A DNA stretch of 64,000 nt from an uncultured bacterium (GCA_965541585.1 CBEUCH010000016.1:22056-86055); one strand, 5' to 3'. Positions 16,869 to 44,010 are shown, counted from the first letter of the stretch. The notes: generated from the sequence alone by a model not told the origin. Numbers and translations: made by a program.

Positions 16869-16919
16869 TTTAAGTATTGGCGAGTCTTGAAAACCAAATA
16901 ACTAAACATGGGAGGAGCC

Positions 16920-18070: not shown

Positions 18071-18102
18071 AGGGGCGAAGACAATTCGCCCCTCTTTTTT
18101 TT
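18071..18102 (+). terminator. Rho-independent terminator
   Basis: AGGGGCGAA-GACAA-TTCGCCCCT-C-T8. Confidence 0.9.
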
Positions 18103-18121: not shown

Positions 18122-18150
18122 TTGACTATGTGGCGCGGGGTATCTATATT
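18122..18150 (+). promoter_or_regulatory. sigma70-type promoter for the LVIVD gene plus paralog array
   Basis: TTGACT-17 nt-TATATT, with an overlapping TATAAT at 18150. Confidence 0.7.
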
Positions 18151-18209: not shown

Positions 18210-20315
18210 ATGAGAGCCTTAAGAGTTATAATAACTGCACTAACGCTGCTCATGTCGGCGTTGGCGTGGGGCCAGGATGTAGAATATCTGGAATCGACCT
18301 TATGGGCTGGAATCACCGACGTCAAAGTCGTAGATAATTATGCTTACTGCAGCTTTAGAAATGGATTGAAGATAATAGATATCACGGATAGGACGCATCC
18401 GGTCTTGACCAGCAAACTATTTTTCTTAGGAGAAGGACAGACGATCGATATCAAGGGTGATCAGCTCTTCATGGCTGATGGTAGCGGTGGTTTACAAATA
18501 ATAGATATCTCAAATCCTGAGTTTCCTGCACTCATGAGCAATCTTGGTACACCTGATACCTTATATGACGCATTTATCGAAGGAAATTATGCATACCTTG
18601 CTGTAGATGATTCTGGATTATATATCGCTGACATATCCGATCCCCTTAATCCGATTCTCGTGGGGAGTGAAGACTCTCCAATAGATGCCCGGGGTGTTTT
18701 TGTTTCAGGAGACCACGCCTATGTAGCCGATCTTTTTCGCGGCATGAAAATATACAGAATCACAGATCCAGCCAATCCAATATTGGAGGCCGCTTTTGAT
18801 TATCAGTGCTACGTTAAGAATCTAACTGTATCAGGTCATCACGCTTATCTTGCCGCCGGGGCCAGCCTGTTAATAGTTGACATCACGACTCCCCTGGAAC
18901 CTGTTCTTGTATCATCCTTTTCTACTTTACCCAATCATTGCGAAGGGGTTTATGTCAGGGGGAATTATGCCTACCTTGCCGTCAGCAGTTTATTCCAGGT
19001 AATCGACATTTCTGATCCCACCAGCCCGTTCGAGGTAGGCTCATATGAAATGTGGGGACCGGCAATGGACGTTTTCGTCCAGGACGATCAAGCATACGTG
19101 GTTGATCGTGATTATGGTCTTTTGACATTAAATATTGAAGATCCATTCAATCCTATTCAGATCGGATATTACATCACAAAAGGAAAGCCGATTTGCGTTT
19201 TCACTGTTAATGATTACGCCTATGTGGCCGCTGACCGATTCGGTTTGCATATTATAGACATTGCTGATCCGGCTAACCCCTCTTTGCGCGGGTCGCTCCA
19301 AACAGGCCGGTGGTATCATGATATTTTTGTTCTTAATAGCTATTCTTATATTTCCGTGGGAGAATTGTTACAAATAGTGGATGTCTCGGATACTGAAAAT
19401 CCATTTCTTGCAGGGGAATACGAGATAGAAAATTATTTTTATATATCGAGTGTTTTTGTGGCCGGTCAATATGCCTACCTGGCCGTAGATGAGTTTGGAT
19501 TGGAGATTGTCGATATAAGTCACCCGGAATACCCTGATCTCATAGGAAGTTATAATACATGGAGTTTCCCCTACTCCATTTTTGTCAGCGGGAATTATGC
19601 ATACATGGTTGGTGAGTTCGGCCTTGAGATATTCGATGTCTCAGATCCATCTGACCCGTTGTTAGTGGGGAGTAGCAATCTCGGATGGGCAAGTGCTGTC
19701 TTTGTTAGCGGCTCCTATGCCTATATAGGAGGCTCCAATCAGCTGGTAATATTGGATGTCATTGATCCTTTCAACCCTACACTCGTTAGTGCTTGTGATG
19801 CTCGAGGTTTCGTCCTGGACGTTTTCGTGGAAGGCCACTATGCTTATTTGGCAGTTTACGGATTTGGTGTTCAAATCATAGATATCTCAGATCCAGCCGA
19901 TCCTTCTTTGATCGCAAATCATGGTACTCCGGGTAATGCGCCCAAAGCGCATGTTGTTGACAATCATATATACGTGGCCGACGTTTTCTCCATGATTATT
20001 TTGCGTTTCGACCCTCAAACAGGAATTACGGAGGAAGTTTCAGCCGCTTCCAGATCTTTCTCCCTTTCCCAAAACTACCCCAACCCCTTCAATGCCAAGA
20101 CCACAATCAAATATAGCCTGCCGGAAGCGAGGGAGGTTACAATCGAAATTTTCGACATCCTGGGACGGAAGGTTGAGACGCTGGTTCAAGAAAAACAGGC
20201 TGCCGGCTATCATCAGGTGGTCTGGGATGCTGAGAATCAGCCGTCAGGAGTCTATTTCTATTGGATAAAAGCCGGAGAATATAAGGAATCGAGGAGCTGT
20301 TTGCTTCTGAAATAG
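18210..20315 (+). CDS. LVIVD-repeat beta-propeller protein with T9SS-type CTD
   Basis: Signal peptide; many V.GNYAY.A...GL.IIDISDP..P repeats; QNYPNPFN...SCLLLK tail. Confidence 0.9.
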   Translation: MRALRVIITALTLLMSALAWGQDVEYLESTLWAGITDVKVVDNYAYCSFRNGLKIIDITDRTHPVLTSKLFFLGEGQTIDIKGDQLFMADGSGGLQIIDISNPEFPALMSNLGTPDTLYDAFIEGNYAYLAVDDSGLYIADISDPLNPILVGSEDSPIDARGVFVSGDHAYVADLFRGMKIYRITDPANPILEAAFDYQCYVKNLTVSGHHAYLAAGASLLIVDITTPLEPVLVSSFSTLPNHCEGVYVRGNYAYLAVSSLFQVIDISDPTSPFEVGSYEMWGPAMDVFVQDDQAYVVDRDYGLLTLNIEDPFNPIQIGYYITKGKPICVFTVNDYAYVAADRFGLHIIDIADPANPSLRGSLQTGRWYHDIFVLNSYSYISVGELLQIVDVSDTENPFLAGEYEIENYFYISSVFVAGQYAYLAVDEFGLEIVDISHPEYPDLIGSYNTWSFPYSIFVSGNYAYMVGEFGLEIFDVSDPSDPLLVGSSNLGWASAVFVSGSYAYIGGSNQLVILDVIDPFNPTLVSACDARGFVLDVFVEGHYAYLAVYGFGVQIIDISDPADPSLIANHGTPGNAPKAHVVDNHIYVADVFSMIILRFDPQTGITEEVSAASRSFSLSQNYPNPFNAKTTIKYSLPEAREVTIEIFDILGRKVETLVQEKQAAGYHQVVWDAENQPSGVYFYWIKAGEYKESRSCLLLK

Positions 20316-20333
20316 AAGCTCAAGGGAGAAAAT

Positions 20334-21242
20334 ATGAAGAAGTTATCACTGGCAACATTAATCGTGATTTTCGTCGTAGCTATAGCCTCCGCCCAATCAA
20401 ACAAAATCGTCTTCGGGCCGCTGGTGGGGGATGATGCCGGAGTTCTAACCGTACACAAAAGCCAGGCCATCGGAGTTGAACTCTGGGTACGGACGAACCC
20501 GGATAATCCGGCTGACATTGTCGGAATGTCTCACGGCCTGATTTCCGAGGATTTTATCATTGCCGAGCGAAACGGCATGGATCCCGAGCCTGATTACGAT
20601 TCACCCCCCTGGGAAAATGTCTTTGTGGACGGGCCGTATGTATATGATCCGGAGGATAACTTTCCTATTCCGGTGGGTTGGACTTGCGAAATGCAGGGCG
20701 CTTTGTGTATTATTTTTAATCCGGTGCAGTGTGCTATTTTAGATACGCAAGGAGAGTGGGATCTCTACGGCACCTGGCTGATGACCACCAACACCGAAAT
20801 ACCGACAGAGCAAACTTATTTCCCATTCCAGGAGGGCTGGTACCCCCATACCCAGGGCCGGGAAAGCACCATTTGGGCATTCGACATTGGTGGTGGTGTC
20901 ACTCCGGAGCAGTCTTACTGCGGGTTGTATTTTGAATCTAACATCTGCTCCTATCTCTCAGGCGACTGCGACCATAACGGCTTTCCAATCGAACTCACTG
21001 ATGTTTTAGCCATGATCGGCTTTTACAGGGGAACGATGGAACCATATTTATGTGAATGCAGCGAAGATCCGACAGTCTACAACTTCGCCGCCACCGCCGA
21101 CCCCAACGGCAACTGCGCACCCAACGAACTCCTGGACGTGGTTACTGAGATAGCCGCCTACCGGGGAACCATGACAGCCTCCGGCTGCCCCGACTGCCCC
21201 GGCTCTGAGGGGCTGGTAACAGGCGAGAACGAAGGTCAATAA
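20334..21242 (+). CDS. Array gene 1: V domain + Cys-rich dockerin-like tail
   Basis: Signal peptide; tail GDCDHNGFPIELTDV...ADPNGNCAPNELLDV (two EF-hand-like loop-helix repeats). Confidence 0.85.
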   Translation: MKKLSLATLIVIFVVAIASAQSNKIVFGPLVGDDAGVLTVHKSQAIGVELWVRTNPDNPADIVGMSHGLISEDFIIAERNGMDPEPDYDSPPWENVFVDGPYVYDPEDNFPIPVGWTCEMQGALCIIFNPVQCAILDTQGEWDLYGTWLMTTNTEIPTEQTYFPFQEGWYPHTQGRESTIWAFDIGGGVTPEQSYCGLYFESNICSYLSGDCDHNGFPIELTDVLAMIGFYRGTMEPYLCECSEDPTVYNFAATADPNGNCAPNELLDVVTEIAAYRGTMTASGCPDCPGSEGLVTGENEGQ

Positions 21243-21252
21243 GGGAGAAAAT

Positions 21253-22173
21253 ATGAAAACGCTGCTCTCAATATTATTGGCGATAATGTTCATGCAATCA
21301 GCGGCTCTCTCGCAGGACCTGAACAAGATCGTCTTCGGCCCGCTGGAGGGAGATGATGCCGGAGTTCTGACCGTGCATAACGGCCAGGCCATCGGAGTTG
21401 AACTCTGGGTGCGGACAGATCCGGGCAATCCTGCTCCTGTTGTTGGTGTAGCTCACGGACTCATGTCTGAAGATGTCATCATAGCCGAGCGAAATGGCTT
21501 GGATCCTGAGCCCCTGTACGATTGGTGTATGTATTTTGTCGACGGCCCATACGCTTATGATGACCCGTATGAATATGAATTTCCCATCCCTCCGGGCTGG
21601 ACATGTGAAATGCAGTGGGCTGTCCCCTGCGATTGGCCGCCCTGTGGTGACGGCGAACCCGGCGGCGGTCCCATGGACACTCAGGGCGAATGGGACCTCT
21701 ACGGTAGCTGGCTGATGATCACTAACATCGAAATACCGGCAGAGCAAACTTATTTCCCATTCCAGGAGGGCTGGTACCCCCATAACGGCGAGGGAACAAA
21801 ATGGGAATTCGAGGGTGGTGGAGGCGTCGTGCCGGAGCAGTCCTACTGCGGCCTGTATTTTGAATCTAATATCTGCTCCTATCTCCTCGGCGATTGCGAC
21901 CATAACGGCTTTCCGATAGAACTCACCGATGTTTTAGCCATGATCGGCTTTTACAGGGGGGGAATAGAGCCAGATTATCTATGCGAATGCGGCGAAGATC
22001 CGACAGTTTACAGCTTCGCCGCCACAGCCGACCCCAACGGCAACTGCGCACCCAACGAGCTTAGCGACGTGGTTACCGAGATCGGCGCCTACCGGGGAAC
22101 CATGACGGCCTCCGGCTGCCCCGACTGCCCCGGTACGGAGGGGATAGTGATTCGAGAAAATGAAGGTCAATAA
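21253..22173 (+). CDS. Array gene 2: V domain + dockerin-like tail
   Basis: Same architecture as gene 1. Confidence 0.85.
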   Translation: MKTLLSILLAIMFMQSAALSQDLNKIVFGPLEGDDAGVLTVHNGQAIGVELWVRTDPGNPAPVVGVAHGLMSEDVIIAERNGLDPEPLYDWCMYFVDGPYAYDDPYEYEFPIPPGWTCEMQWAVPCDWPPCGDGEPGGGPMDTQGEWDLYGSWLMITNIEIPAEQTYFPFQEGWYPHNGEGTKWEFEGGGGVVPEQSYCGLYFESNICSYLLGDCDHNGFPIELTDVLAMIGFYRGGIEPDYLCECGEDPTVYSFAATADPNGNCAPNELSDVVTEIGAYRGTMTASGCPDCPGTEGIVIRENEGQ

Positions 22174-22183
22174 GGGCGGAAAT

Positions 22184-23068
22184 ATGAAAACGCTACTCTC
22201 AATAATATTGGCTATATTGTTCATGCAATCACCGGCCTCCGCCCAATCGAACAAGATCGTCATCGGCCCACTGGAGGGGGATGACGCCGGTGTTTTGACA
22301 GTGCACAATGGCGAAGCCATAGAGGTTGAGATATGGGTGCGAACCGATCCGGATAATCCGGCGGTGGTTATAGGCGTGAGCCACGGATTATTGTCAGAGG
22401 ATATCATCATAGCGGAGCGAAATGGCATGGATGTTGAGCCCCCGTACGACGAATGGCTTCAATATTTTGTAGATGGGCCCTTTACAGATGCCGACGGGGG
22501 TGCTTACCCTTATCCTGCCGGCTTTATCGGCGAGATGCAGGGTGCAATCTGGTGTGGCTTTTTGCCGCCTTGCCCCGACCAACCCATAGACACTCAGGGC
22601 GAATGGGACCTTTACGGCACATGGCTGATGGATGTTAATATCGGAATACCGACAGAGCAAACTTATTTCCCATTCCAGGAAGGATGGTACCCCCATAGCG
22701 GGTATGGCACCCTATGGGCATTCGACGGTGGTGGCATGGTCACTCCCGAGCAGTCTTACTGCGGCCTTTATTTTGAGCCATATCCTTGTTCATATATCCC
22801 CGGCGACTGCGACCATAACGGTTTTCCAATAGAACTCACCGATGTCCTGGCCATGATAGGTTTTTACAGGGGAACGATGAGACCAGATTTATGCGAATGC
22901 GGCGATGATCCCTTAATGCTCTATTTTGCTGCCACCGCCGACCCCAACGGCAACTGCGCGCCCAACGAGCTTCTGGACGTGGTTACCGAGATAGCCGCCT
23001 ACCGGGGAACCATGACAGCCTCCGGCTGCCCAGATTGCCCCGGTACGGAGGGTTTGTTGCGAAAATAA
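22184..23068 (+). CDS. Array gene 3: V domain + dockerin-like tail
   Basis: Start moved to ATG 22184 (MKTLLSI) by homology with paralogs. Confidence 0.85.
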   Translation: MKTLLSIILAILFMQSPASAQSNKIVIGPLEGDDAGVLTVHNGEAIEVEIWVRTDPDNPAVVIGVSHGLLSEDIIIAERNGMDVEPPYDEWLQYFVDGPFTDADGGAYPYPAGFIGEMQGAIWCGFLPPCPDQPIDTQGEWDLYGTWLMDVNIGIPTEQTYFPFQEGWYPHSGYGTLWAFDGGGMVTPEQSYCGLYFEPYPCSYIPGDCDHNGFPIELTDVLAMIGFYRGTMRPDLCECGDDPLMLYFAATADPNGNCAPNELLDVVTEIAAYRGTMTASGCPDCPGTEGLLRK

Positions 23069-23077
23069 GGCGGTAAT

Positions 23078-23983
23078 ATGAAGAATCTATTCAAAACATT
23101 ATTGGTAACCTCTTTAATAACAGCGTCAGCTTCCGCCCAATCCAATAAGATCGTCGTCGGCCCGCTGGTGGGGGATGATGCCGGAGTCCTGACCGTGCAC
23201 AATGCTGAGGCTATAGAAGTTGAACTCTGGGTGCGGACCGACCCGGCTAATCCAACTTCCATTATCGGCGTGGCGCATGGTTTATCCTCAGATAATGTTA
23301 TTATTGCTGAGCGAAATGGAGTTGTTATAGAACCTGAATACGACGAGCCCTATTGGTGCACAGTCTGGGTCGACGGGCCTTTTATCCATAATCCAGCTGA
23401 CGATTTCCCCATTCCGGAAGGTTTGACATGCGAGATCTCGGTCGGATTATATACATGGTGGCCCGACTGCATCGGCTGGCCGCTCAATACTCAGGGCGAA
23501 TGGGACCTCTACGGCACCTGGCTGATGGTTGTTAATACCGGAATACCAACAGAGCAAACTTATTTCCCATTGGAAGAGGGCTGGTATCCCCACAACGGAG
23601 AGGGCACAAACTGGGCATTCGACCGTGGTGGAGGCGTCACTCCGCAACAGTCTTACTGCGGCCTGTATTTTGAATCTAACATCTGCTCCTATATCCCCGG
23701 CGACTGCGACCATAACGGCTTTCCAATAGAACTCACCGATGTTCTGGCCATGATAGGCTTTTACAGAGGGGGAATAGAGCCAGATTATCTATGCGAATGC
23801 GGGGAAAACCCGACAGTATACAACTTCGCGGCCACAGCCGACCCCAACGGCAACTGCGCGCCCAACGAGCTTCTGGACGTGGTTACCGAGATAGCCGCCT
23901 ACCGGGGGACGATGACCGCCTCCGGCTGCCCCGACTGCCCCGGTACGGAGGGGATTGTGATTCGAGAAAATGAGGATCAATAA
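23078..23983 (+). CDS. Array gene 4: V domain + dockerin-like tail
   Basis: Same architecture. Confidence 0.85.
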   Translation: MKNLFKTLLVTSLITASASAQSNKIVVGPLVGDDAGVLTVHNAEAIEVELWVRTDPANPTSIIGVAHGLSSDNVIIAERNGVVIEPEYDEPYWCTVWVDGPFIHNPADDFPIPEGLTCEISVGLYTWWPDCIGWPLNTQGEWDLYGTWLMVVNTGIPTEQTYFPLEEGWYPHNGEGTNWAFDRGGGVTPQQSYCGLYFESNICSYIPGDCDHNGFPIELTDVLAMIGFYRGGIEPDYLCECGENPTVYNFAATADPNGNCAPNELLDVVTEIAAYRGTMTASGCPDCPGTEGIVIRENEDQ

Positions 23984-23992
23984 GGGGGAAAT

Positions 23993-25447
23993 ATGAAGAG
24001 GCTCTTCTGGCTATTACTGATTATATCTTTTATTTCATCATCAGCTTTCGGACAGGGCCTGAATAAGATCGTCTTCGGCCCGCTGGAGGGAGATGAAGCC
24101 GGGGTTCTAACCGTGCATAACGGTGAAGATATCGAGATCGAAATGTGGGTTCGAACAGACCCTAATAATCCAGGGCCTGTTGATAACATATTTCATGCTC
24201 TACTCTCTGAAGATATTATTATCGCCGAACGAAATGGTATTGTTATTGAACCTCCGTATGACAATGCCAACTGGGGGGGCTTTGTGGGTGTAGACGGTCC
24301 TTACGTTCATAATCCAAACGATAATTACCCTATTCCTGAGGGTTATACATGTGAAATCCAGTATGCTCTTCATTGCGACCCTTTTCCCTGCGATACCGAC
24401 GAAATGGACACACAGGGCGAGTGGGATCTTTACGGGACCTGGATGATGGTTGTCAATATGGACATCCCCGTGGATCAGACATATTTTCCTTTCATGGAAG
24501 GCTGGTACCCCGGTACGGGAAACGGTACTGAATGGTCGTTCGACGGTGGTGGCGGCGTCACTCCGGAGCAGTCTTACTGCGGTCTTTATTTCCCGATGCC
24601 CCAAACCAATAAGATCGTCTTCGGCCCGCTGGTGGGAGATGAGGCTGGAGTCTTGACGGTGCATAACAACCAGGCCATCGGAGTTGAACTCTGGGTTCGT
24701 ACCGATCCGGATAATCCGGCGGTGGTTACAGGCGTGCAACACGGGTTATTGTCAGAGGATATCATTATCTTAGAGCGAAACGGAATGGATATCGAGCCTC
24801 AATATGAATCTAATTACTGGCAAACATTTGTCGACGGCCCATACTCTTATGATGACCCGTATGAATATGAATTTCCCATCCCTCCGGGCTGGACCTGTGA
24901 AATGCAGTGGGCTCTCCGCTGCGATTTGCCGCCCTGCGACGGCGAACCCATGGACACTCAGGGCGAATGGGACCTCTACGGTACCTGGCTGATGATCACC
25001 AACATCGAAATACCGACAGAGGAAACTTATTTCCCATTCCAGGAGGGATGGTATCCACATAGCGGGGAAGGCACCCACTGGTCATTCGAAGGTGGTGGAG
25101 GCGTATACCCTGAGGAAGATTACTGCGGTTTGTATTTCGAACAGTATATCTGCGAATATATTCCCGGCGACTGCGACCATAACGGCTTTCCGATAGAACT
25201 CACCGATGTCCTGGCCATGATAGGTTTTTACAGGGGAACGATGAGACCAGATTTATGCGAATGCGGCGATGATCCCTTAATGCTCTATTTTGCTGCCACC
25301 GCCGACCCCAACGGCAACTGCGCGCCCAACGAGCTTCTGGACGTGGTTACCGAGATAGCCGCCTACCGGGGAACCATGACAGCCTCCGGCTGCCCAGACT
25401 GCCCCGGCTCGGAGGGGCTCGTAATTCGAGAAAATAAAGGGCATTAG
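23993..25447 (+). CDS. Array gene 5: two tandem V domains + dockerin-like tail
   Basis: The junction YCGLYF-PMPQT-NKIVFGPL joins two full V domains. Confidence 0.85.
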   Translation: MKRLFWLLLIISFISSSAFGQGLNKIVFGPLEGDEAGVLTVHNGEDIEIEMWVRTDPNNPGPVDNIFHALLSEDIIIAERNGIVIEPPYDNANWGGFVGVDGPYVHNPNDNYPIPEGYTCEIQYALHCDPFPCDTDEMDTQGEWDLYGTWMMVVNMDIPVDQTYFPFMEGWYPGTGNGTEWSFDGGGGVTPEQSYCGLYFPMPQTNKIVFGPLVGDEAGVLTVHNNQAIGVELWVRTDPDNPAVVTGVQHGLLSEDIIILERNGMDIEPQYESNYWQTFVDGPYSYDDPYEYEFPIPPGWTCEMQWALRCDLPPCDGEPMDTQGEWDLYGTWLMITNIEIPTEETYFPFQEGWYPHSGEGTHWSFEGGGGVYPEEDYCGLYFEQYICEYIPGDCDHNGFPIELTDVLAMIGFYRGTMRPDLCECGDDPLMLYFAATADPNGNCAPNELLDVVTEIAAYRGTMTASGCPDCPGSEGLVIRENKGH

Positions 25448-25456
25448 GGAGGATAT

Positions 25457-26413
25457 ATGAAAACGTTACTCTCAATAATATTGGCGATATCGATCATGCC
25501 GTCAGCGGCCCTTTCGCAGGACCTGAACAAAATCGTCTTCGGGCCTCTTGTGGGCGACAGTGCCGGAATACTGACTGTCCGCAACGGGGAGGAAATTGCC
25601 ATTGAAATGTGGATACACGCTGATCCCGAAAATCCATCATGTATTATAGGTCTATCTCATGGACTCATAACCGACGACGCTATCATTGCTGAAAGAAACG
25701 GCGTTGTCATCGATCCGTATTATGATGAACCCTACTGGGAGTCAGTCTGGGTTGATGGCCCATTTGACCACAACCCGGAAGATCCCTTTCCGATCCCGGA
25801 AGGACATACCGGTGAAAACCAGGTTGCCCTGGGATCCCTATTTGGTGGTTGTGATAGCATTCTTCATATACTCCCGGATACGGGATGGGTTTATTACGGG
25901 TCGTTTTTAATGGTATGTAACGATAACGTACCGCTGGGCGAAATATATTATCCATTTTCCATAGGCTGGTATCCGCATAGCGGTCAGGGAACCAGCTGGT
26001 CGTTTGATAACCCTCCGGGCGGCAGTGTTGAACCGGAGCAGGATTACTGCGGACTTTATTTCGTGCCGGAATGCGATTATGTTCCCGGCGATTGCGACCA
26101 CGACGGGACTCCGTGGAGGCTTACCGATGTAGTCTCCATGATCGCCTTCTACAGAGGCTTTGCGGAACCTCCCTATACGTGCTACTGCCCGCCTCATGAT
26201 GACGATTACCCTCCCGGCGCCGATCCCGACGGCAGTTGTGTTCCGTATGAGCTCTCCGACGTGGTCATCATGATCACCATGTTCCGGGGTCCTGGATGGC
26301 CGCCTTCCGGCTGCCTCGATTGCCGAACTTTCGGCAGGGTGGATTCGAGAAATGGCGATAATGAGAACCTCGTGCCAACCCTGAAATCAAAGGCTAAGAT
26401 CGAGAAAGAATGA
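25457..26413 (+). CDS. Array gene 6: V domain + divergent dockerin-like tail
   Basis: Tail PGDCDHDGTPWRLTDVVSMIAFY...GADPDGSCVPYELSDVVIMI. Confidence 0.85.
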   Translation: MKTLLSIILAISIMPSAALSQDLNKIVFGPLVGDSAGILTVRNGEEIAIEMWIHADPENPSCIIGLSHGLITDDAIIAERNGVVIDPYYDEPYWESVWVDGPFDHNPEDPFPIPEGHTGENQVALGSLFGGCDSILHILPDTGWVYYGSFLMVCNDNVPLGEIYYPFSIGWYPHSGQGTSWSFDNPPGGSVEPEQDYCGLYFVPECDYVPGDCDHDGTPWRLTDVVSMIAFYRGFAEPPYTCYCPPHDDDYPPGADPDGSCVPYELSDVVIMITMFRGPGWPPSGCLDCRTFGRVDSRNGDNENLVPTLKSKAKIEKE

Positions 26414-26423
26414 ATGGATTAAT

Positions 26424-28658: not shown

Positions 28659-28676
28659 AGGCTCAAGGGGGAAAAT

Positions 28677-29567
28677 ATGAAGAAGTTAGCAGCGGCGACA
28701 TTAATCGTGATTTTCAGCTTATCTATAGCCTCCGCCCAATCCAACAAGATCGTCTTCGGCCCGCTGGAGGGAGATGATGCCGGGGTTTTGACGGTGCATA
28801 ATGGTGAGGCTATTGAGATTGAGATGTGGGTACGGACAGATCCGGATAATCCTGCCCCTATTATCGGCGTATCGCATTGCCTGATGTCTGCGGATACTAT
28901 TATCGCCAGCCGCAACGGTGCCACATTTGATTCCGACTATGGCTATCCGTGTTGGGATACCTTCGTCAGCCCCCCATTCGGACACCCGTATGATCCGAAC
29001 ATTCCCGAAGGACATACGATACAAGTTGCAGCCGCTATCTATACGATATTCGATCCTCCCTGCCACCCAATGGATACGAACGGCGAATGGGACTATTACG
29101 GGGCTTTTTTGATGACATGCAATACCGGCCTGCCTGTCGACAGCACATATTACCCGTTTTTAGCTGGCTGGTTTCCGCACAGCGGGCAGGGAACCAGTTG
29201 GTCTTTTGAAGCTCCGCCGGGCGGAAGCGTGGAGCCAGAACAGGATTACTGCGGGCTCTTTTTTCAACCCGAAACCCGTATCGGCCAGAATGAAGGATTG
29301 CCTGAAGAGTTTTCCCTTTTCCAAAACCACCCTAATCCGTTCAACACCAAGACCACAATCCGATATAGCCTGCCGGAAGAGAGCGACGTCACCATCGAAA
29401 TCTACAATATCCTGGGACGAAAGATTGAGACGCTGGTATCGGGAATACAGCCAGCCGGATGGCATTCGATGGTATGGGATGCTGAAAATCGGCCGTCAGG
29501 AGTCTATTTCTATTGGATAAAAGCCGGAGAATATAAGGAATCGAGGAGCTGTTTGCTTCTGAAATAG
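28677..29567 (+). CDS. Array gene 8: V domain + T9SS-type CTD
   Basis: QNHPNPFN...SCLLLK. Confidence 0.85.
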   Translation: MKKLAAATLIVIFSLSIASAQSNKIVFGPLEGDDAGVLTVHNGEAIEIEMWVRTDPDNPAPIIGVSHCLMSADTIIASRNGATFDSDYGYPCWDTFVSPPFGHPYDPNIPEGHTIQVAAAIYTIFDPPCHPMDTNGEWDYYGAFLMTCNTGLPVDSTYYPFLAGWFPHSGQGTSWSFEAPPGGSVEPEQDYCGLFFQPETRIGQNEGLPEEFSLFQNHPNPFNTKTTIRYSLPEESDVTIEIYNILGRKIETLVSGIQPAGWHSMVWDAENRPSGVYFYWIKAGEYKESRSCLLLK

Positions 29568-29585
29568 AAGGTCAAGGGGGAAAAT

Positions 29586-30494
29586 ATGAAAAGATTACTG
29601 ATGCCATTATTAATCGTGATTTTCGGCTTAGCTACAGCCTCCGCCCAATCCAACAAGATCGTCTTCGGGCCGCTGGAGGGGGATGAAGCCGGGGTTCTAA
29701 CCGTTCACAATAGTGAGGCTATCGGAATTGAGATGTGGGTGCGAACAGACCCGGATAATCCTACGCCCATTATCGCCACAGCGCATGGTCTGATGTCTGA
29801 AAATGTGATCATAGTGGAACGAAATCGAATGGATCCTGAGCCGGAATATAACTCACTGCCTTGGGCACAGTTCTTTATAGACGGGCCTTATGTATATGAT
29901 CCCCAATATGACTTTCCTATACCTGAAGGCTGGACATGCGAAATGCAAGGTGCATTATGTTGTGACCTCCCAGGTGACCCTGGGCCGCGTCTTGACACCC
30001 AGGGCGAATGGGATCTTTACGGTACCTGGCTGATGGTCACTAATACCGAAATAGCGACAGAGCAAACTTACTTCCCATTCGTAGAAGGCTGGTATCCGCA
30101 TAGTGGCTTTGGTACTTCCTGGGTGTTCGAGTGGGGTGATGATTGGGTTGAACCTGACAAGTCTTACTGCGGGTTGTATTTCGAATCTAATATCTGCGTC
30201 TATCTCCCCGGCGACTGCGACCATAACGGCTTTCCGATAGAACTCACTGATGTCCTGGCCATGATCGGTTTTTATAGAGGGGGAATAGAGCCAGATTATC
30301 TATGCGAATGCAGCGAAGATCCGACAGTTTACAACTTCGCCGCCACAGCCGACCCCAACGGCAACTGCGCCCCCAACGAGCTTCTGGACGTGGTTACCGA
30401 GATAGCCGCTTACCGTGGAACCATGACAGCCTCCGGCTGCCCCGACTGCCCCGGCTCCGAAGGAATAGTGAATCGAGAAAATGAAGGGCGATAG
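29586..30494 (+). CDS. Array gene 9: V domain + dockerin-like tail
   Basis: Same tail as genes 1-5. Confidence 0.85.
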   Translation: MKRLLMPLLIVIFGLATASAQSNKIVFGPLEGDEAGVLTVHNSEAIGIEMWVRTDPDNPTPIIATAHGLMSENVIIVERNRMDPEPEYNSLPWAQFFIDGPYVYDPQYDFPIPEGWTCEMQGALCCDLPGDPGPRLDTQGEWDLYGTWLMVTNTEIATEQTYFPFVEGWYPHSGFGTSWVFEWGDDWVEPDKSYCGLYFESNICVYLPGDCDHNGFPIELTDVLAMIGFYRGGIEPDYLCECSEDPTVYNFAATADPNGNCAPNELLDVVTEIAAYRGTMTASGCPDCPGSEGIVNRENEGR

Positions 30495-30503
30495 GAGGCC
30501 ATT

Positions 30504-31397
30504 ATGAGGACCCTGGGATTTATATTGTTTGCATTCATATCTTTAGGGATGTCTGAGACCTCCGCGCAATCCAACAAAATCGTCTTCGGCCCGCTGGAGG
30601 GGGATGAGGCTGGAATCCTGACAGTGCATAACGGAGAGGCCATCGGAGTTGAACTCTGGGTACGGACAGATCCGGATAATCCCACCGGCATCTGTGGCAT
30701 GGCCCATGGCCTATCATCAGATGATCTTATAATAGGGAGTCGAAACGGAATCGATATTGAACCTGAGTATGACATGCCGAATTGGGAAGCCACCTGGGTT
30801 GATGGACCTTTTACGCATAATCCCGATGATCCTTTCCCAATTCCACAAGGATTTACGTGCGAAGTTCAAATTGGTTATAGTCTGTGGTGTTCACCGTTTA
30901 TGGATACGAACGGCGAGTGGGATCTCTATGGCACCTGGCTGATGGTTACCAATACTGGAGTACCGATAGAGCAGCTCTATTACCCATTTGCAATGGGCTG
31001 GTATCCTCATAGCGGACAGGGAACCAGTTGGTCTTTTGAAGCTCCGCCGGGCGGCTCGGTCGTTCCCGAGCAGGATTACTGCGGGCTCTATTTTGAAACC
31101 GAAACCCGTATAGACGAGAATAAAAGATTGCCCCAGGAGTTTTCATTGGCTCAAAACTATCCCAATCCCTTCAATGCCAAGACCACAATCCGATACAGCC
31201 TGCCGGAAAAGAGCGATGTCACCATAGAAATCTTCGATATCCTGGGGCGGAAGGTTGAGACGCTGGTTCAAGAAAGACTGGCTGCCGGCTATCATCAGGT
31301 GGTCTGGGACGCTGAGAATCAACCATCAGGAAATTATATGTACTGGATAAAAGCCGGAAAATATAAGGAATCGAGGAGCTGTTTGCTTCTGAAATAG
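30504..31397 (+). CDS. Array gene 10: V domain + CTD
   Basis: QNYPNPFN...SCLLLK. Confidence 0.85.
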   Translation: MRTLGFILFAFISLGMSETSAQSNKIVFGPLEGDEAGILTVHNGEAIGVELWVRTDPDNPTGICGMAHGLSSDDLIIGSRNGIDIEPEYDMPNWEATWVDGPFTHNPDDPFPIPQGFTCEVQIGYSLWCSPFMDTNGEWDLYGTWLMVTNTGVPIEQLYYPFAMGWYPHSGQGTSWSFEAPPGGSVVPEQDYCGLYFETETRIDENKRLPQEFSLAQNYPNPFNAKTTIRYSLPEKSDVTIEIFDILGRKVETLVQERLAAGYHQVVWDAENQPSGNYMYWIKAGKYKESRSCLLLK

Positions 31398-31415
31398 AAG
31401 CTCAAGGGGGAGAAT

Positions 31416-32309
31416 ATGAAGAAGCTATTACTGGCGACATTAATCGTGATTTTCAGCTTATCTATTGCCTCCGCCCAATCCAACAAGATCGTCTTCGGGC
31501 CGCTGGAGGGGGATGATGCCGGGGTTTTGACGGTGCACAATGCGGAGAGTATCGAAGTTGAACTCTGGGTGCGGACCGATCCGGATAATCCTGACTGGAT
31601 CATAGCTGTTTCCCACGGTTTGCTTTCTGAAGATGCCATTATCGCAGAGCGGAACGGCATGGATCCGGAGCCCGAATACAACATGCCTAACTGGGAAAGT
31701 TTCTTTGTCGACGGGCCTTTTGTACATGATCCAGACTATGCTTATCCCATTCCGATAGGGTGGACATGCGAGATGCAGGTCGCACTATGCGTCTGGAATC
31801 CGGGTTGTAGTTTGGATACCCAGGGCGAATGGGATCTTTATGGCACCTGGCTGATGGTTACGAATACCGAAATACCGGTTGAACAGACCTATTACCCTTT
31901 TGAAATGGGCTGGTACCCTCACAGTGGTCAGGGAACATCATGGGCTTTTGAAGTACCACCGGGCGGCATCATTGAGCCGGAGCAGTCTTACTGCGGGCTC
32001 TTTTTTGAACCCGAAACAAGTATCGACGAGAATGAAAGCCTGCCTGAAGAGTTTTTCCTTTTCCAAAACTACCCCAACCCGTTCAACACCAAGACCACAA
32101 TCCAATACAGCCTGCCGGAAGAGAGCAATGTCACAATCGAAATATACAATATCCTTGGCCGCAGGATCGAGACGCTAATATCCGGGATTCAGCCACCCGG
32201 TTCGCATTCGGTGGTATGGGATGCTGAAAATCAACCGTCAGGAGTCTATTTCTATTGGATAAAAGCCGGAAAATATAAGGAATCGAGGAGCTGTCTGCTT
32301 CTGAAATAG
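31416..32309 (+). CDS. Array gene 11: V domain + CTD
   Basis: QNYPNPFN...SCLLLK. Confidence 0.85.
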   Translation: MKKLLLATLIVIFSLSIASAQSNKIVFGPLEGDDAGVLTVHNAESIEVELWVRTDPDNPDWIIAVSHGLLSEDAIIAERNGMDPEPEYNMPNWESFFVDGPFVHDPDYAYPIPIGWTCEMQVALCVWNPGCSLDTQGEWDLYGTWLMVTNTEIPVEQTYYPFEMGWYPHSGQGTSWAFEVPPGGIIEPEQSYCGLFFEPETSIDENESLPEEFFLFQNYPNPFNTKTTIQYSLPEESNVTIEIYNILGRRIETLISGIQPPGSHSVVWDAENQPSGVYFYWIKAGKYKESRSCLLLK

Positions 32310-32327
32310 AAGGTCAATGGGGAAAAT

Positions 32328-33221
32328 ATGAAGAAGTTAGCAGCGGCGACATTAATCGTGATTTTCAGCTTATCTATAGCCTCCGCCCAATCCAACAAGA
32401 TCGTCTTCGGCCCGCTGGAGGGAGATGATGCCGGGGTTTTGACGGTGCATAATGGTGAGGCTATTGAGATTGAGATGTGGGTACGGACAGATCCGGATAA
32501 TCCTGCCCCTATTATTGGCATATCGCATTGTCTGATGTCTGCGGATACTATTATCGCCAGCCGTAACGGTGCCACATTTGATCCAGACTACAGCTATCCG
32601 TGTTGGAATACCTTCGTCAGCCCCCCATTCGGACACCCGGATTATCCGGACCTTCCCGAAGGACATACGATACAAGCTGCAGGCGCTATGCATACGGTAT
32701 TCGATCCTCCCTGCGATTCAATAGATACGAACGGCGAATGGGATTATTACGGGGCTTTTTTGATGACATGCAACACCGGCCTGCCAACAGATGAAACCTA
32801 TTATCCGTTTTCTATGGGTTGGTATCCTCACAGCGGCGAGGGAACAAAATGGGCATTCGCGGGAGGTGGCGGCATCGAGCCGGAACAGTCTTACTGTGGG
32901 CTGTATTTTGAGCCATATCCTTGTTTGTACATTCCCGGCGACTGCGACCATAACAGCTTTCCAATAGAACTCACTGACGTCCTGGCCATGATAGGCTTTT
33001 ACAGGGGGAATATAGAGCCAGATTATCTATGCGGCTGCGGAGAAGACCCCATAATACACGATTTCGCTGCCACCGCCGATCCCAACGGCAACTGCGCCCC
33101 CAACGAGCTTCTGGACGTGGTTACCGAGATAGCCGCCTACCGTGGAACCATGACAGCCTCCGGTTGCCCCGACTGCCCCGGCTCCGAGGGTCTGGTAAAG
33201 CGAGAAGATGAAGGTCAATAA
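32328..33221 (+). CDS. Array gene 12: V domain + dockerin-like tail
   Basis: V closely resembles genes 8 and 15 but carries the dockerin-like tail. Confidence 0.85.
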   Translation: MKKLAAATLIVIFSLSIASAQSNKIVFGPLEGDDAGVLTVHNGEAIEIEMWVRTDPDNPAPIIGISHCLMSADTIIASRNGATFDPDYSYPCWNTFVSPPFGHPDYPDLPEGHTIQAAGAMHTVFDPPCDSIDTNGEWDYYGAFLMTCNTGLPTDETYYPFSMGWYPHSGEGTKWAFAGGGGIEPEQSYCGLYFEPYPCLYIPGDCDHNSFPIELTDVLAMIGFYRGNIEPDYLCGCGEDPIIHDFAATADPNGNCAPNELLDVVTEIAAYRGTMTASGCPDCPGSEGLVKREDEGQ

Positions 33222-33230
33222 GGGGCGAAT

Positions 33231-34130
33231 ATGAAAACGCTGCTCTCAATATTCTTGGTGATATCGATCATGCCGTCAGCGGCCGTTTCGCAGGACCTGA
33301 ACAAGATCGTCATCGGCCCGCTGGTGGGAGATGATGCTGGCATTTTGACTGTGCATAACGGCGAAGATATTGAGATTGAGGTATGGGTGCGGACCGACCC
33401 GGGTAACCCGGTTTATATAGTCTTTGTTGCTCATGGTCTGTTGTCTGAAAACGCAATCATAGCGGAGCGAAATGGAATGGACCCTGAGCCTGTATATGAC
33501 ATGCCACCTTGGGAGTCATTCTGGGTCGATGGACCTTTTGTCCATAATCCGGAAGACAACTTTCCAATCCCCTCAGGGTGGACCTGCGAAATGCAGGCTG
33601 CATGGCTCGGCTGGACCGATCCACCACCACCTCTCGATACACAGGGAGAATGGGACCTCTACGGCACCTGGCTTATGGTTACGAATACCGAGATACCGAT
33701 AAACCAGACCTATTACCCACTTGCAATGGGCTGGTATCCGCACAGCGAGCAGGGGACCTTCTGGGGTTTTCCAGTGCCTCCCGGTGGCTCGGTGGAACCC
33801 GAGCAGTCTTACTGCGGGCTCTATTTTGAACCCGAAACAAATATCGACCAGAATGAAAGATTGCCGCAGGAGTTTTCTCTGGCTCAAAACTACCCCAATC
33901 CCTTCAATGCCAAGACCACAATCAAATATGGCCTGCCGGAAGCGAGGGAGGTTACAATCGAAATCTACAATACCCTGGGACGGAGGGTTGAGACGCTGGT
34001 TCAAGAAAAACAGGCTGCCGGCTATCATCAGGTGGTCTGGGATGCTGAGAATCAGCCGTCAGGAGTCTATTTCTATTGGATAAAAGCCGGAGAATATAAG
34101 GAATCGAGGAGCTGTTTGCTTCTGAAATAG
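33231..34130 (+). CDS. Array gene 13: V domain + CTD
   Basis: QNYPNPFN...SCLLLK. Confidence 0.85.
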   Translation: MKTLLSIFLVISIMPSAAVSQDLNKIVIGPLVGDDAGILTVHNGEDIEIEVWVRTDPGNPVYIVFVAHGLLSENAIIAERNGMDPEPVYDMPPWESFWVDGPFVHNPEDNFPIPSGWTCEMQAAWLGWTDPPPPLDTQGEWDLYGTWLMVTNTEIPINQTYYPLAMGWYPHSEQGTFWGFPVPPGGSVEPEQSYCGLYFEPETNIDQNERLPQEFSLAQNYPNPFNAKTTIKYGLPEAREVTIEIYNTLGRRVETLVQEKQAAGYHQVVWDAENQPSGVYFYWIKAGEYKESRSCLLLK

Positions 34131-34148
34131 AAGGTCAAGGGGGAAAAT

Positions 34149-35048
34149 ATGAAGAAGTTATCAGCGGCGACATTAATAGTGCTTTTCGGCTTAGCTATAG
34201 CCTCCGCCCAATCCAACAAAATCGTCTTCGGCCCGCTGGAGGGAGATGAGGCTGGGGTCTTGACGGTGCATAATGGTGAGGCTATTGAGATTGAGGTATG
34301 GGTCAGGACGGATCCATTGAATCCCGCTCCCGTCGTGGGATTTGCCACCGGATTATTGTCAAATGATAGCTTCATAGCCGAAAGAAACTGTGCCATTTTT
34401 AATCCCGAATACCATTGGGAAAGTATGGGCTGCGACGGCCCGTTTCGACACGATCCGGATGATCCTTTCCCTATCCCGGAAGGTCATACATCGGAATTCA
34501 TATGGGCCATCTGTCCGCTTTTTCCCCCTCCCTACTGTGATACTCTTGATACCGGTGGCGAATGGGATTATTTAGCCTCCTTCCTGATGGTCTGCAATAC
34601 CGGCGTGCCAACAGATGAAACCTATTATCCGTTTTCTATTGGCTGGTATCCTCACAGCGGCGAGGGAACAAAATGGGCATTCGCGGGTGGTGGTGGCATC
34701 ACCCCGGAGCAAGACTATTGCGGATTGTATTTTGATGAAATTATCGTTTGCGATTACATCCCCGGAGATTGCGATCATAACGGCTTTCCAATAGAACTCA
34801 CCGATGTTCTGGCCATGATAGGATTTTACAGGGGGAATATAGAGCCAGATTATCTATGCGAATGCGGCGAAGATCCTACAGTCTACAACTTCGCCGCCAC
34901 CGCCGACCCCAACGGGAACTGCGCCCCCAACGAGCTTCTGGACGTGGTTACGGAGATAGCCGCCTACCGGGGAACCATGACAGCCTCCGGTTGCCCCGAC
35001 TGTCCCGGCTCGGAGGGGCTGGTGATTCGAGAAAATGAAGATCAATAA
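34149..35048 (+). CDS. Array gene 14: V domain + dockerin-like tail
   Basis: Same tail as genes 1-5. Confidence 0.85.
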   Translation: MKKLSAATLIVLFGLAIASAQSNKIVFGPLEGDEAGVLTVHNGEAIEIEVWVRTDPLNPAPVVGFATGLLSNDSFIAERNCAIFNPEYHWESMGCDGPFRHDPDDPFPIPEGHTSEFIWAICPLFPPPYCDTLDTGGEWDYLASFLMVCNTGVPTDETYYPFSIGWYPHSGEGTKWAFAGGGGITPEQDYCGLYFDEIIVCDYIPGDCDHNGFPIELTDVLAMIGFYRGNIEPDYLCECGEDPTVYNFAATADPNGNCAPNELLDVVTEIAAYRGTMTASGCPDCPGSEGLVIRENEDQ

Positions 35049-35057
35049 GGGAGAAAT

Positions 35058-35951
35058 ATGAAAACGCTGCTATCAATATTATTGGCGATATCGATCATGC
35101 CGTCAGTGACAGTTTCGCAGAACCTGAATAAGATCGTTTTCGGGCCGCTGGAGGGGGATGATGCCGGGGTTTTGACCGTGCACAACGGCCAGGCTATTGA
35201 GATTGAGATGTGGATTAGAACGGATCCGAATAATCCTGCGCCTATTATCGGCGTATCGCATTGCCTGATGTCTGCGGATACCATTATCGCCAGCCGCAGT
35301 GGTGCCACATTTGATCCCGACTATAGCTATCCCTGTTGGGATACCTTCGTTAGCCCCCCATACGGACACCCGGATGATCCGAACATTCCCGAAGGATATA
35401 CGATACAAGCTGCAGGCGCTATCTATACGGTATTCGATCCTCCCTGCCACCCAATGGATACGAACGGCGAATGGGACTATTACGGGGCTTTTTTGACGAC
35501 ATGTAATACCGGCGTGCCAATAGATGAAACCTATTATCCATTTTCCAGTGGCTGGTATCCCCACAGCGGGCAGGGAACCAGTTGGTCTTTTGAAGCTCCT
35601 CCGGGCGGAAGCGTTGATCCAGAACAGGATTACTGCGGGCTCTATTTTGAGCCGGAGATCACTATCGATCCTATTCCTGAGATTCCCTCTGAGTTTTCAT
35701 TGGCTCAAAACTACCCCAATCCGTTCAACACCAGGACCACAATCCAATATAGCCTGCCGGAGGAGAGCGGGGTCACAATCGAAATCTACAATATCCTGGG
35801 GCGGAAGGTTGAGACGCTGATTCGAGAAAAACAGACAGCCGGCTATCATCAGGTGGTCTGGGATGCTGAAAATCAACCGTCAGGAAACTATTTGTACAGA
35901 ATTAAGGTTGCGGAGTATGTGGAAACGAGGAGTTGCCTGCTTTTGAAATAA
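35058..35951 (+). CDS. Array gene 15: V domain + CTD
   Basis: QNYPNPFN...SCLLLK. Confidence 0.85.
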   Translation: MKTLLSILLAISIMPSVTVSQNLNKIVFGPLEGDDAGVLTVHNGQAIEIEMWIRTDPNNPAPIIGVSHCLMSADTIIASRSGATFDPDYSYPCWDTFVSPPYGHPDDPNIPEGYTIQAAGAIYTVFDPPCHPMDTNGEWDYYGAFLTTCNTGVPIDETYYPFSSGWYPHSGQGTSWSFEAPPGGSVDPEQDYCGLYFEPEITIDPIPEIPSEFSLAQNYPNPFNTRTTIQYSLPEESGVTIEIYNILGRKVETLIREKQTAGYHQVVWDAENQPSGNYLYRIKVAEYVETRSCLLLK

Positions 35952-36175: not shown

Positions 36176-36203
36176 TTGACATGGTTGGAAAATGCAATAT
36201 ATT
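36176..36203 (+). promoter_or_regulatory. Strong sigma70-type promoter for array gene 16
   Basis: TTGACA-16 nt-TATATT, with an A/T-rich upstream palindrome TTTTTGCAAAAA. Confidence 0.7.
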
Positions 36204-37265: not shown

Positions 37266-37295
37266 GGGCGGTCCTTTTGGGCCGCCTTTTTATTT
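37266..37295 (+). terminator. Rho-independent terminator
   Basis: GGGCGGTCC-TTTT-GGGCCGCCT followed by a T tract. Confidence 0.85.
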
Positions 37296-42179: not shown

Positions 42180-42325
42180 AACGTATCTGACCAATAGCAA
42201 TCACCTCGTCCAACAGTAAGAAATTTCTTGACTTCTAAGTAGAATTGGTTATCCATATAATTAGAGGTAGTTCGGTTTTTCACATACAAACTGCCAGCTA
42301 AAAAATGCCTCGCTGGGAGGATATA

Positions 42326-43999: not shown

Positions 44000-44010
44000 G
44001 AGATGAAATC

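Follow-up and report, generated by a model that had tools for sequence, protein, structure and literature searches.

A probable operon of mosaic genes with a predicted cohesin fold and two alternative tails, likely shaped by unequal crossover and gene conversion

Introduction

Two described systems lie closest to the locus examined here. In Ruminococcus flavefaciens, ScaC consists of one cohesin and a dockerin, while ScaE carries one cohesin that is held on the cell surface, as set out in the part of the source that we cite (PMC5934362). In the Cloacimonadota, the cited part of PMC8542988 describes in silico a cellulosome-like system of "Ca. Stygibacter," in which a scaffoldin combines tandem cohesins with a type IX secretion system (T9SS) C-terminal domain (CTD) and in which peptidases and glycosidases are tagged with dockerins, so cohesin/dockerin systems anchored by T9SS tails have already been proposed in print.

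Here, we analyzed a stretch of 64,000 nucleotides (GCA_965541585.1, CBEUCH010000016.1:22056-86055; referred to below as the window, with positions counted from its first letter) from an uncultured bacterium that probably belongs to the Zixibacteria and whose genome comprises 3.52 Mb in 40 contigs. To our knowledge, this phylum has no cultured model; our literature searches found no paper linking Zixibacteria with cohesin or dockerin and none that brings together cohesin, dockerin, scaffoldin, and gene conversion. The subject of this study is an array of 16 genes, g1 to g16, on the plus strand at positions 18210 to 35951. Only 9 to 18 nt separate neighboring genes, and because the spacers are so short, we regard the array as probably a single operon of 17.7 kb. 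Genes g2 to g16 are 15 paralogues of about 300 codons, each encoding a Sec signal peptide, a domain of about 175 residues that runs from NKIVFGPL to YCGLYF (the V domain), and a tail, of which there are two kinds, a cysteine-rich dockerin-like module and a type A T9SS CTD; g6, with two V domains, and g8, with 744 residues, are longer exceptions. Taken together, our results make it fairly likely that this is a probable operon of mosaic, cohesin-fold paralogues with two alternative tails, shaped by unequal crossover and gene conversion, in which CTD-bearing forms would act as sockets and dockerin-bearing forms as adaptors.

Results

Self-BLAST of the array showed that 11 of its 12 longest matches (519 to 693 nt, 81 to 94% identity) straddle a gene border, running from approximately nt 400 to 440 of one gene through the tail, the spacer, and the next signal peptide to approximately nt 110 to 215 of the following gene. 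An earlier note on this DNA had proposed that tail, spacer, and next signal peptide travel together, and this was clear at CTD junctions but only partly so at dockerin junctions. At the six CTD junctions, mean pairwise identity, with positions counted from the ATG of the next gene, was at least 80% between -273 and +160, save for one 30-nt window of 72 to 77% near -160, and it peaked at 95 to 99% between -78 and -33, within the last 60 nt of the CTD. The eight dockerin junctions compared (g7 to g8 being left out) were 88 to 95% identical over much of the dockerin and dropped to 55 to 74% between -49 and +53. The note had also taken the whole V domain for the variable cassette, but the truly divergent part covers only codons 60 to 137 or so, where most pairs are 40 to 72% identical.

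Exact repeats of 206, 197, 148, and 99 bp join units whose cores are about 50% identical. The 197-bp repeat represents the most recent exchange crossing a start codon, and the two genes that share it, g9 and g13, are 100% identical in the SP and Ncons segments and carry tails of different kinds. The 148-bp match joins the CTD of g1 to the end of the g14 CTD. Homology between g1 and the V-CTD genes begins at approximately g1 nt 1852 to 1861 (self-BLAST), and the left edge of the array is made up of the final 250 nt or so of g1, its CTD, which are part of the repeated unit. At the right edge, the last 70 nt or so of the g16 CTD are unlike the inner CTDs.

The mosaicism of the array genes is strongly supported. 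The pairwise homoplasy index (PHI) on the head alignment (341 informative sites) was lower than in any of 1,000 permutations (0/1000 as low; p<=0.001), and the test was likewise significant for codons 25 to 214 and when restricted to the core (p = 0.002). When the alignment was divided into signal peptide, Ncons, core, and Cend, separate topologies for these four segments reached a log likelihood of -7196.4, versus -7415.4 for a shared topology with free branch lengths, a difference of 219 units, and approximately unbiased (AU) tests rejected all 12 cross-segment trees (p<=1.3e-4). The segment phylogenies, whose congruence would have spoken against mosaicism, were incongruent, and the incongruence involves all 16 sequences, beyond the pairs with long exact repeats. 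In the triplet g9, g13, and g16, g9 equals g13 over codons 1 to 63, all three are alike over codons 66 to 165, g13 equals g16 over codons 169 to 182, and g9 equals g16 from codon 186 into the tail, with partner switches at about codons 64, 166, and 184. In these three genes, one V type pairs with both tails and both signal types, which supports the note's re-pairing of V with either anchoring mode, and all four combinations of signal type and tail occur in the array. The synonymous difference (pS) was 0.40 to 0.41 in the tails and 0.61 in Ncons compared with 0.77 in the core, indicating that the flanks are younger than the cores. The flanks are under purifying selection (nonsynonymous-to-synonymous ratio pN/pS, 0.19 to 0.38).

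A home-made GARD-like scan (IQ-TREE on all intervals, 6-codon resolution, and a minimum segment of 18 codons) placed three breakpoints at columns 24, 60, and 168, added column 186 as a fourth, and gave columns 24, 60, 126, 150, and 180 at the best corrected Akaike information criterion. The idea that crossovers fall at the ends of the V domain stood for NKIVFGPL, since column 24 is the border between signal peptide and NKIVFGPL, but YCGLYF is not the main site at the other end, and further sites lie near codon 60 and at columns 168 to 186. Because the scan could not place a breakpoint past column 196, YCGLYF was judged by other evidence. A PPGGS indel about 15 codons upstream of YCGLYF is found in all six CTD-tailed single-domain genes (g9, g11, g12, g14, g16, and, just outside the run, g17) and is absent from eight of the nine dockerin genes, the exception being g7, and in the Cend tree, g7 and g8 fall together with every CTD gene. 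This distribution indicates that exchanges at YCGLYF are rare and that the usual 3' boundary lies 30 to 45 codons upstream. Additionally, the stretch just before YCGLYF cosegregates with the tail, and the tract common to g6b and g3 begins inside the V domain, at about codon 100.

The junctions themselves follow a simple pattern, much as first described. After all six CTD-ending genes inside the run (stops at 20315, 28658, 29567, 31397, 32309, and 34130), the open reading frame (ORF) and junction sequences showed a spacer of exactly 18 nt that fits the consensus given in the note and then a signal peptide of the MK(K/R)L..LIV(I/L)F type (LIVIF type). In order, the spacers are aagctcaagggagaaaat, aggctcaagggggaaaat, aaggtcaagggggaaaat, aagctcaagggggagaat, aaggtcaatggggaaaat, and aaggtcaagggggaaaat, and the signal peptides that follow them are MKKLSLATLIVIF, MKKLAAATLIVIF, MKRLLMPLLIVIF, MKKLLLATLIVIF, MKKLAAATLIVIF, and MKKLSAATLIVLF. 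Every 18-nt spacer ends, right before the ATG, in a purine-rich GGGGGAAAAT-like stretch that is a putative ribosome-binding site. All nine dockerin-ending genes (g2 to g7, g10, g13, and g15) are followed by a spacer of 9 to 10 nt and a signal of another type, which begins with MKTLLSI in five of the nine cases (g3, g4, g7, g14, and g16); for the g3-to-g4 spacer, this length presumes that g4 starts at ATG 22184 and not at the upstream ATG 22160. The short spacers are homologous to the final 9 to 10 nt of the 18-nt spacer, and once the stop codon of the dockerin gene is removed, its last 8 coding nt (AAGGTCAA) and the 10-nt spacer together match the 18-nt spacer at 15 to 16 of 18 positions (g3 and g4). 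These alignments show the two spacer types to be homologous and not unrelated.

The association between the previous gene's tail and a LIVIF-type signal is perfect in the array (Fisher test, p = 2.0e-4), although this value overstates independence because the junctions are copies of each other and not 15 independent trials; a gene's own tail showed no association with its signal type (p = 1.0). The statement that the LIVIF type never follows a dockerin held in the array (0/9) but not in sister genomes, where two of six such junctions have it (dockerin plus 8 to 9 nt). Since the rule fails in two sister species, it reflects shared descent, not functional coupling. Elsewhere in this genome, the post-CTD spacer is 18 nt at three of four dispersed CTD-to-V junctions. 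Relatives have post-CTD spacers of 17 and 19 nt and post-dockerin spacers of 8 to 10 nt in five of six cases and 24 nt in one.

The syntenic locus (a g0 homologue through a g17 homologue, an M3 peptidase, and a copper ATPase) contains one V gene in metagenome contig L032, three in contig L027, six in sister genome G002, and 15 here. In L032, the order is LVIVD-CTD, 17 nt, and MKKSLLAALIVVF..V-CTD, i.e., a single unit between two CTD direct repeats, which is a classical substrate for tandem amplification with the CTD/spacer/LIVIF-type junction already in place. Among 40 relatives searched, close copies were found only in two other genomes of the genus, with 10 matches each, and two genomes of another genus hold V copies with approximately 33% identity. 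In the latter genus, the loci L015 (G007:C29) and L017 (G010:C1) are small arrays in which the tail other than the CTD has the ending ..(A)EPCEYC.PP.. in place of the dockerin-like module, making a third type of tail, and in which the spacers are 8 and 12 nt long. Phylogenetically, the V copies of this genome are intermingled with those from other assemblies (tree of 61 V domains), and seven dockerin-tailed domains (g2, g3, g4, g5, g6a, g6b, and g10) form a clade specific to this genome. Tail type needs nine changes on this tree (47 genes counted, 14 rows set aside), at least four of them forced by well-supported branches, compared with an average of 14.5 for shuffled labels. The orthologue of g17, which lies outside the array, was kept in all syntenic loci examined and forms a clade with a Shimodaira-Hasegawa-like approximate likelihood ratio (SH-aLRT) support of 98.

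Structure prediction indicates that the V domain has a cohesin fold. The AlphaFold2 (AF2) model of g13, built with 63 homologues (mean predicted local distance difference test [pLDDT] score, 82.2), shows a jelly-roll beta-sandwich with nine strands in cohesin topology. Among the 38 Foldseek matches listed for this model, most were cohesin modules (best E 1.4e-6), the best match of the V domain being the R. flavefaciens ScaC cohesin 5lxv. VIA-align superimposed model residues 22 to 196 on 4uyq_A with a Z score of 14.8 and a root mean square deviation (rmsd) of 2.3 A over 142 of 143 residues, and the first 46 of the 50 rows that it listed were cohesin modules. The N- and C-terminal strands are conserved and the core is divergent. 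In g13, variable positions fall in the strands formed by residues 62 to 72 and 113 to 122 and in the loop of residues 123 to 131. A hidden Markov model (HMM) of the V domain identified 26 copies in the genome, 17 in the window and nine at five other places, with V-V and V-V-V fusions and a g8 paralogue among the latter. The family is narrow, with 36 clusters at E<=1e-3 among 1.84 billion representatives.

Head-to-tail V fusions were seen as V-V-V-dockerin and V-V-dockerin at G000 C2:116266-117963 (minus strand) and C29:18604-19752 (plus strand) and also in g6 (window 23993-25447). Their junctions always read YxGLxF, 4 to 5 residues, and N(K/R)(I/V)(V/I)FGP, so that the fusions look like precise deletions of tail, spacer, and signal peptide.

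By profile comparison, the cysteine-rich tail is dockerin-like, with predicted calcium loops. Against a profile of seven Pfam-positive dockerins of the same genome, hhalign aligned the nine array tails with 94.2% probability (E 1.1e-7) over 59 columns and both loop-helix repeats. The duplicated loop and helix of dockerins is present in the AF2 model of g13, in which helices 215-225 and 261-271 follow the loops GDCDHNG and ADPNGNC. A tail HMM found this module on 45 ORFs genome-wide, 33 of which are not V genes, and 15 of 20 scanned tail-bearing non-V ORFs have Pfam heads (FG-GAP, LVIVD, beta-helix, C25 and M28 peptidases, and others); no carbohydrate-active enzymes were found among the 20 tail-bearing proteins scanned. 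In this genome, the same head families (LVIVD propeller, beta-helix/DUF1565, C25 peptidase, and FG-GAP) carry either a CTD or a dockerin-like tail (window 42305-52776 versus loci L044, L047, L056, L041, and L050), and the alternation of tails is thus not confined to the array. We also observed a conserved ..P(S/T)LK(S/A)K.K.. extension after the dockerin-like module in g7 (26330-26410) and in about 15 other tail-bearing ORFs, while array-type dockerins are without it; this extension may act as an additional motif for sorting or anchoring at the C terminus.

The other tail is, as far as its sequence tells, a standard type A T9SS CTD. Por_Secre_tail (PF18962/TIGR04183), a domain of about 80 residues at the C terminus, was matched by all four proteins scanned (g1, g8, g9, and g17; E 4.2e-8 to 7.1e-11), and the tails of g11, g12, g14, and g16 align over their full length to the CTDs of these four. 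The genome contains more than 100 T9SS tails. At 1968-7868 on the minus strand, the window has a 1966-residue ORF with a match to SprA_N, of the T9SS translocon (E 4.1e-27), together with many CTD cargo genes, including one for a C25 peptidase that bears a CTD.

Gene g8 encodes a multimodule scaffoldin in which a signal peptide, a V domain, an immunoglobulin (Ig)-like domain (residues 204 to 300), a canonical cohesin, a dockerin, a beta-sandwich (residues 541 to 653), and a T9SS CTD (Por_Secre_tail E 1.2e-10) follow one another. Foldseek with the whole AF2 model (mean pLDDT, 82.5) was swamped by multi-Ig proteins, and the domain ranges were taken from VIA-align. For the fifth domain, hhalign found no similarity to the canonical cohesin of g8 or to the V domain. 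The protein is a member of a conserved family of about 740 residues, one member of which is labelled Candidatus Zixiibacteriota by its source, and a precomputed PF00963 match exists for two of 40 g8 homologues.

The features of the array and its surroundings are collected in Table 1. Within the array, the minus strand has six antisense ORFs (145 to 201 residues), none with a Pfam match, and no Rfam family reached its gathering score in 17500-37600. Directly upstream, 16908-18017 encodes a membrane protein with a weak match to Reg_prop (two-component regulator propeller), which is conserved at this place in syntenic loci L013 and L032 too and might regulate the array. Farther away, a 522-residue ORF without a Pfam match (12352-13920, minus strand) lies beside Wzy-like and Wzz-like genes, and an LVIVD/Ig/AhpC-like ORF (55218-57377, minus strand) is directly followed by a short ORF with a CTD.

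Table 1. Positions of array genes, junction spacers, exact repeats, and flanking elements in the window
Feature	Position	Strand	Basis or remark
Terminator-like hairpin after g0	18071-18093	+	Consensus match only
Promoter-like site upstream of g1	18122-18150	+	Consensus match only
g1, LVIVD beta-propeller and T9SS CTD	18210-20315	+	Pfam LVIVD E 1.4e-104; Por_Secre_tail E 1.5e-10
g2-g7, six dockerin-tailed genes with predicted cohesin fold	20334-26413	+	ORFs; V HMM and dockerin-like tail HMM matches
g2, dockerin-like tail	20334-21242	+	
g3, dockerin-like tail	21253-22173	+	
g4, dockerin-like tail	22184-23068	+	
g5, dockerin-like tail	23078-23983	+	
g6, dockerin-like tail	23993-25447	+	Two fused V domains (junction YCGLYF-PMPQT-NKIVFGPL)
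g7, divergent dockerin-like tail	25457-26413	+	Extension ..LVPTLKSKAKIEKE
g8, multimodule scaffoldin, CTD-ending	26424-28658	+	744 residues
g8 canonical cohesin	Residues 299-456 = nt 27318-27791		VIA-align Z 18.9, rmsd 1.7 A, 139/141 residues of 5nrm_A (model residues 299-455)
g8 dockerin	Residues 474-526 = nt 27843-28001		Pfam Dockerin_1, 24.0 bits (genome search), 19.5 bits (hmmscan)
g9-g16, eight genes with predicted cohesin fold, mixed tails	28677-35951	+	ORFs; tail alignment
g9, CTD	28677-29567	+	
g10, dockerin-like tail	29586-30494	+	
g11, CTD	30504-31397	+	
g12, CTD	31416-32309	+	
g13, dockerin-like tail	32328-33221	+	
g14, CTD	33231-34130	+	
g15, dockerin-like tail	34149-35048	+	
g16, CTD	35058-35951	+	Right edge of array
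Post-CTD spacers, 18 nt, n=6	20316-20333, 28659-28676, 29568-29585, 31398-31415, 32310-32327, 34131-34148	+	
Post-dockerin spacers, 9-10 nt, n=9	21243-21252, 22174-22183, 23069-23077, 23984-23992, 25448-25456, 26414-26423, 30495-30503, 33222-33230, 35049-35057	+	
197-bp exact repeat	28668-28864 = 32319-32515	+	Last 9 nt of spacer, signal peptide, first 188 nt of g9/g13
99-bp exact repeat	29492-29590 = 34055-34153	+	Last 75 nt of CTD, 18-nt spacer, ATGAA; straddles gene border
Promoter-like site before g17	36176-36203		Consensus match only
g17, diverged V-CTD paralogue outside array	36341-37240	+	389-nt gap after g16; own promoter-like site
Terminator-like hairpin after g17	37266-37287		Consensus match only

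Discussion

The mechanism that best fits these results is itself a textbook one. The array would grow, shrink, and be homogenized through unequal crossover and gene conversion, both forms of ordinary homologous recombination, between conserved stretches, a process of which part can be seen in the repeats and breakpoints described above. They would extend from the C-terminal half of the cohesin through tail, spacer, and signal peptide into the first 60 codons or so of the next gene and together would make up one nearly continuous homology block of about 430 to 690 bp, broken only by the divergent core of about 230 bp. With such a block, exchanges would start and end inside genes, so that the 9- to 18-nt junction is never parted from its flanks. 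The junction of CTD, 17 to 18 nt, and LIVIF-type signal would be ancestral, and recombination between the CTD direct repeats on either side would have multiplied it. We saw no sign of a dedicated mechanism for the shuffling of which the earlier note spoke: Pfam scans found no recombinase, invertase, or reverse transcriptase among the window ORFs of >=150 residues outside the array, and the longest inverted repeat was 23 nt, which argues for unequal crossover and gene conversion rather than programmed shuffling.

Our view of function is drawn from the predicted folds and from analogy to ScaC/ScaE and the Cloacimonadota proposal. The CTD forms would be exported by the T9SS and would sit at the cell surface as anchoring sockets, as ScaE or OlpA does, and the dockerin forms would be adaptors like ScaC that plug into another cohesin, for which the canonical cohesin of g8 or a V domain is a candidate. 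The cohesin faces of the dockerin forms themselves might receive some of the approximately 45 dockerin-tagged secreted proteins. Several results weigh against this picture. The V domain had no Pfam family match at E<=0.01 (g2, g6, g7, and g9 scanned), and its hhalign comparison with the canonical cohesin of g8 gave 0.5% probability, so the cohesin assignment rests on the predicted fold. Pfam Dockerin_1 (PF00404) misses the array tails, its nine places in the genome including only the internal g8 module from the array, and against PDB sequences the tail profile matched only a capsid protein, at E 0.14. The dockerin-only proteins also lack any signal for export across the outer membrane. A search of the genome with the PF00963 profile found five places, none of them in the array.

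These observations leave some room, which we would put at the unlikely but serious end, for V to be an adhesin or ligand-binding module that has the cohesin fold without binding dockerins, and for the tail to be a calcium-loop module with another partner or role; the same evolutionary mechanism is compatible with it. Cohesin-like folds exist outside cellulosomes, and besides the lack of sequence similarity to cohesins and the failure of Dockerin_1, g8 carries a separate canonical cohesin and dockerin, so that the organism keeps a more orthodox pair. However, with a Z of 14.8, the fold match extends over an entire cohesin (142 of 143 residues), both repeats of the tail align to real dockerins, and the genome, which has 45 tail-bearing ORFs, combines cohesin-fold and dockerin-like modules in a single protein family.

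The account of the array as a product of unequal crossover and gene conversion has its own weak points. Breakpoints past column 196 were beyond the reach of the GARD-like scan, part of whose likelihood gain reflects differences in rate between segments, the alignment of the divergent core is uncertain, and the ratios of nonsynonymous to synonymous substitution rates (dN/dS) of 0.24 to 0.54 in the closest pairs do not show positive selection on the core. The assembly, in 40 contigs, is a further concern: short-read graphs crossing repeats, or merged strains, could have produced some of the mosaicism, the order of the array, or its copy number, as the exact repeats of 148 to 206 bp exceed usual assembly k-mers and the sole DNA run found held 0.05 of the sampled words, and wrong joins are possible in order and copy number. 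We nevertheless consider an artifact improbable as the source of the pattern. Independent assemblies contain comparable arrays, junctions of similar length, and V-V fusions, the incongruence spans all 16 sequences, and, because long exact repeats always join like with like, a wrong join could not create the junction rule, although order could still be affected.

Still harder to sustain is plain duplication and divergence without recombination, by which LIVIF-V-dockerin and the MKTLLSI-V-CTD after it would have been copied whole as a two-gene unit, with the conserved blocks reflecting nothing but purifying selection. The pairs g13-g14 and g15-g16 do resemble a duplicated pair (86% identity over 616 nt), and all flanks are under purifying selection, but all four signal and tail combinations exist, the AU tests reject every cross-segment tree, PHI is significant, exact runs of 197 to 206 bp connect genes with differing cores, and protein-level selection leaves unexplained why synonymous divergence in the tail (0.40) is about half of that in the core (0.77). 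Programmed cassette shuffling of the antigenic-variation or shufflon type, which would vary the surface by re-pairing V and linker cassettes during a population's lifetime, is the least credible of all, since, for all that conserved blocks flank a divergent core as in cassette systems and that exact repeats of 99 to 206 bp point to recent exchange, each of the 15 genes has its own ribosome-binding-like stretch, ATG, and signal peptide and there are no silent cassettes and no single expression site, the breakpoints are spread over at least five positions and not one site, the V types are orthologues across species, which implies slow turnover, and the enzyme and inverted-repeat searches given above speak against a shufflon or invertible cassettes (no recombinase among the window ORFs of >=150 residues, no inverted repeat of >23 nt) and against a diversity-generating retroelement (no reverse transcriptase among these ORFs).

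What is new, then, is that the recombining block crosses gene borders and that a narrow, Pfam-invisible family with a predicted cohesin fold is present as 15 tandem single-socket genes with two alternative tails. The array is a clean case from nature of how recombination, in blocks that take no account of gene borders, can change the way in which a surface protein is attached. What was an anonymous set of V genes becomes a testable system, with one genome predicted to hold 26 sockets of cohesin fold, 45 plugs of dockerin-like type, and over 100 T9SS tails. A bolder and distinctly speculative idea, to which we give little weight, is that the array is a recombining adaptor library, in which each divergent cohesin face would serve a different subset of the approximately 45 tagged proteins, exchange of flanks would move a specificity between an anchored (CTD) and a relayed (dockerin) form, and dockerin-only proteins would ride CTD-bearing cohesin partners through the T9SS. 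If so, the set of surface enzymes would be open to rewiring by the cell, and the piggyback exit would be a route not described for the T9SS. If the sockets differ in specificity, they could also be a source of orthogonal cohesin-dockerin pairs for Gram-negative surface display.

Tandem arrays of paralogues elsewhere undergo concerted evolution through unequal crossover and gene conversion. The present array resembles them in its homogenized flanks, its old and divergent cores, a copy number that varies among relatives, and tracts that ignore gene borders; it differs in that the homogenized block holds alternative anchoring modules, and exchange therefore changes how a socket is attached. In Neisseria pilE/pilS and Borrelia vlsE, gene-conversion cassette systems produce surface variation, and there, as here, divergent cassettes lie between conserved recombination substrates. 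Unlike in those systems, all copies here have complete expression signals, and there are no silent donors and no single expression site.

Compared with the cohesin/dockerin systems, the locus is like the ScaC/ScaE pair, as presented in the cited part of PMC5934362, in combining one cohesin-fold module with either a dockerin (adaptor) or a surface anchor, an arrangement in which cargo would be relayed to the surface through a change of specificity. In contrast to that pair, the anchor here is a T9SS CTD in a diderm bacterium and not a sortase signal or an S-layer homology (SLH) module, 15 genes form one tandem array with nine more V domains elsewhere in the genome, the V domain lacks sequence similarity to known cohesins and has a fold known from prediction, and the tail is cysteine rich with an insert between its two loops. 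With "Ca. Stygibacter," as far as the cited part of PMC8542988 describes it, the locus shares the combination of cohesin, dockerin, and T9SS CTD in an uncultured relative from the Fibrobacteres-Chlorobi-Bacteroidetes (FCB) group, with a C25 peptidase among the tagged cargo. Whereas that organism has one giant scaffoldin with Pfam-recognizable cohesins (PMC8542988, same part), the array described here would distribute its sockets over many mosaic single-cohesin genes of a narrow family with two alternating tails.

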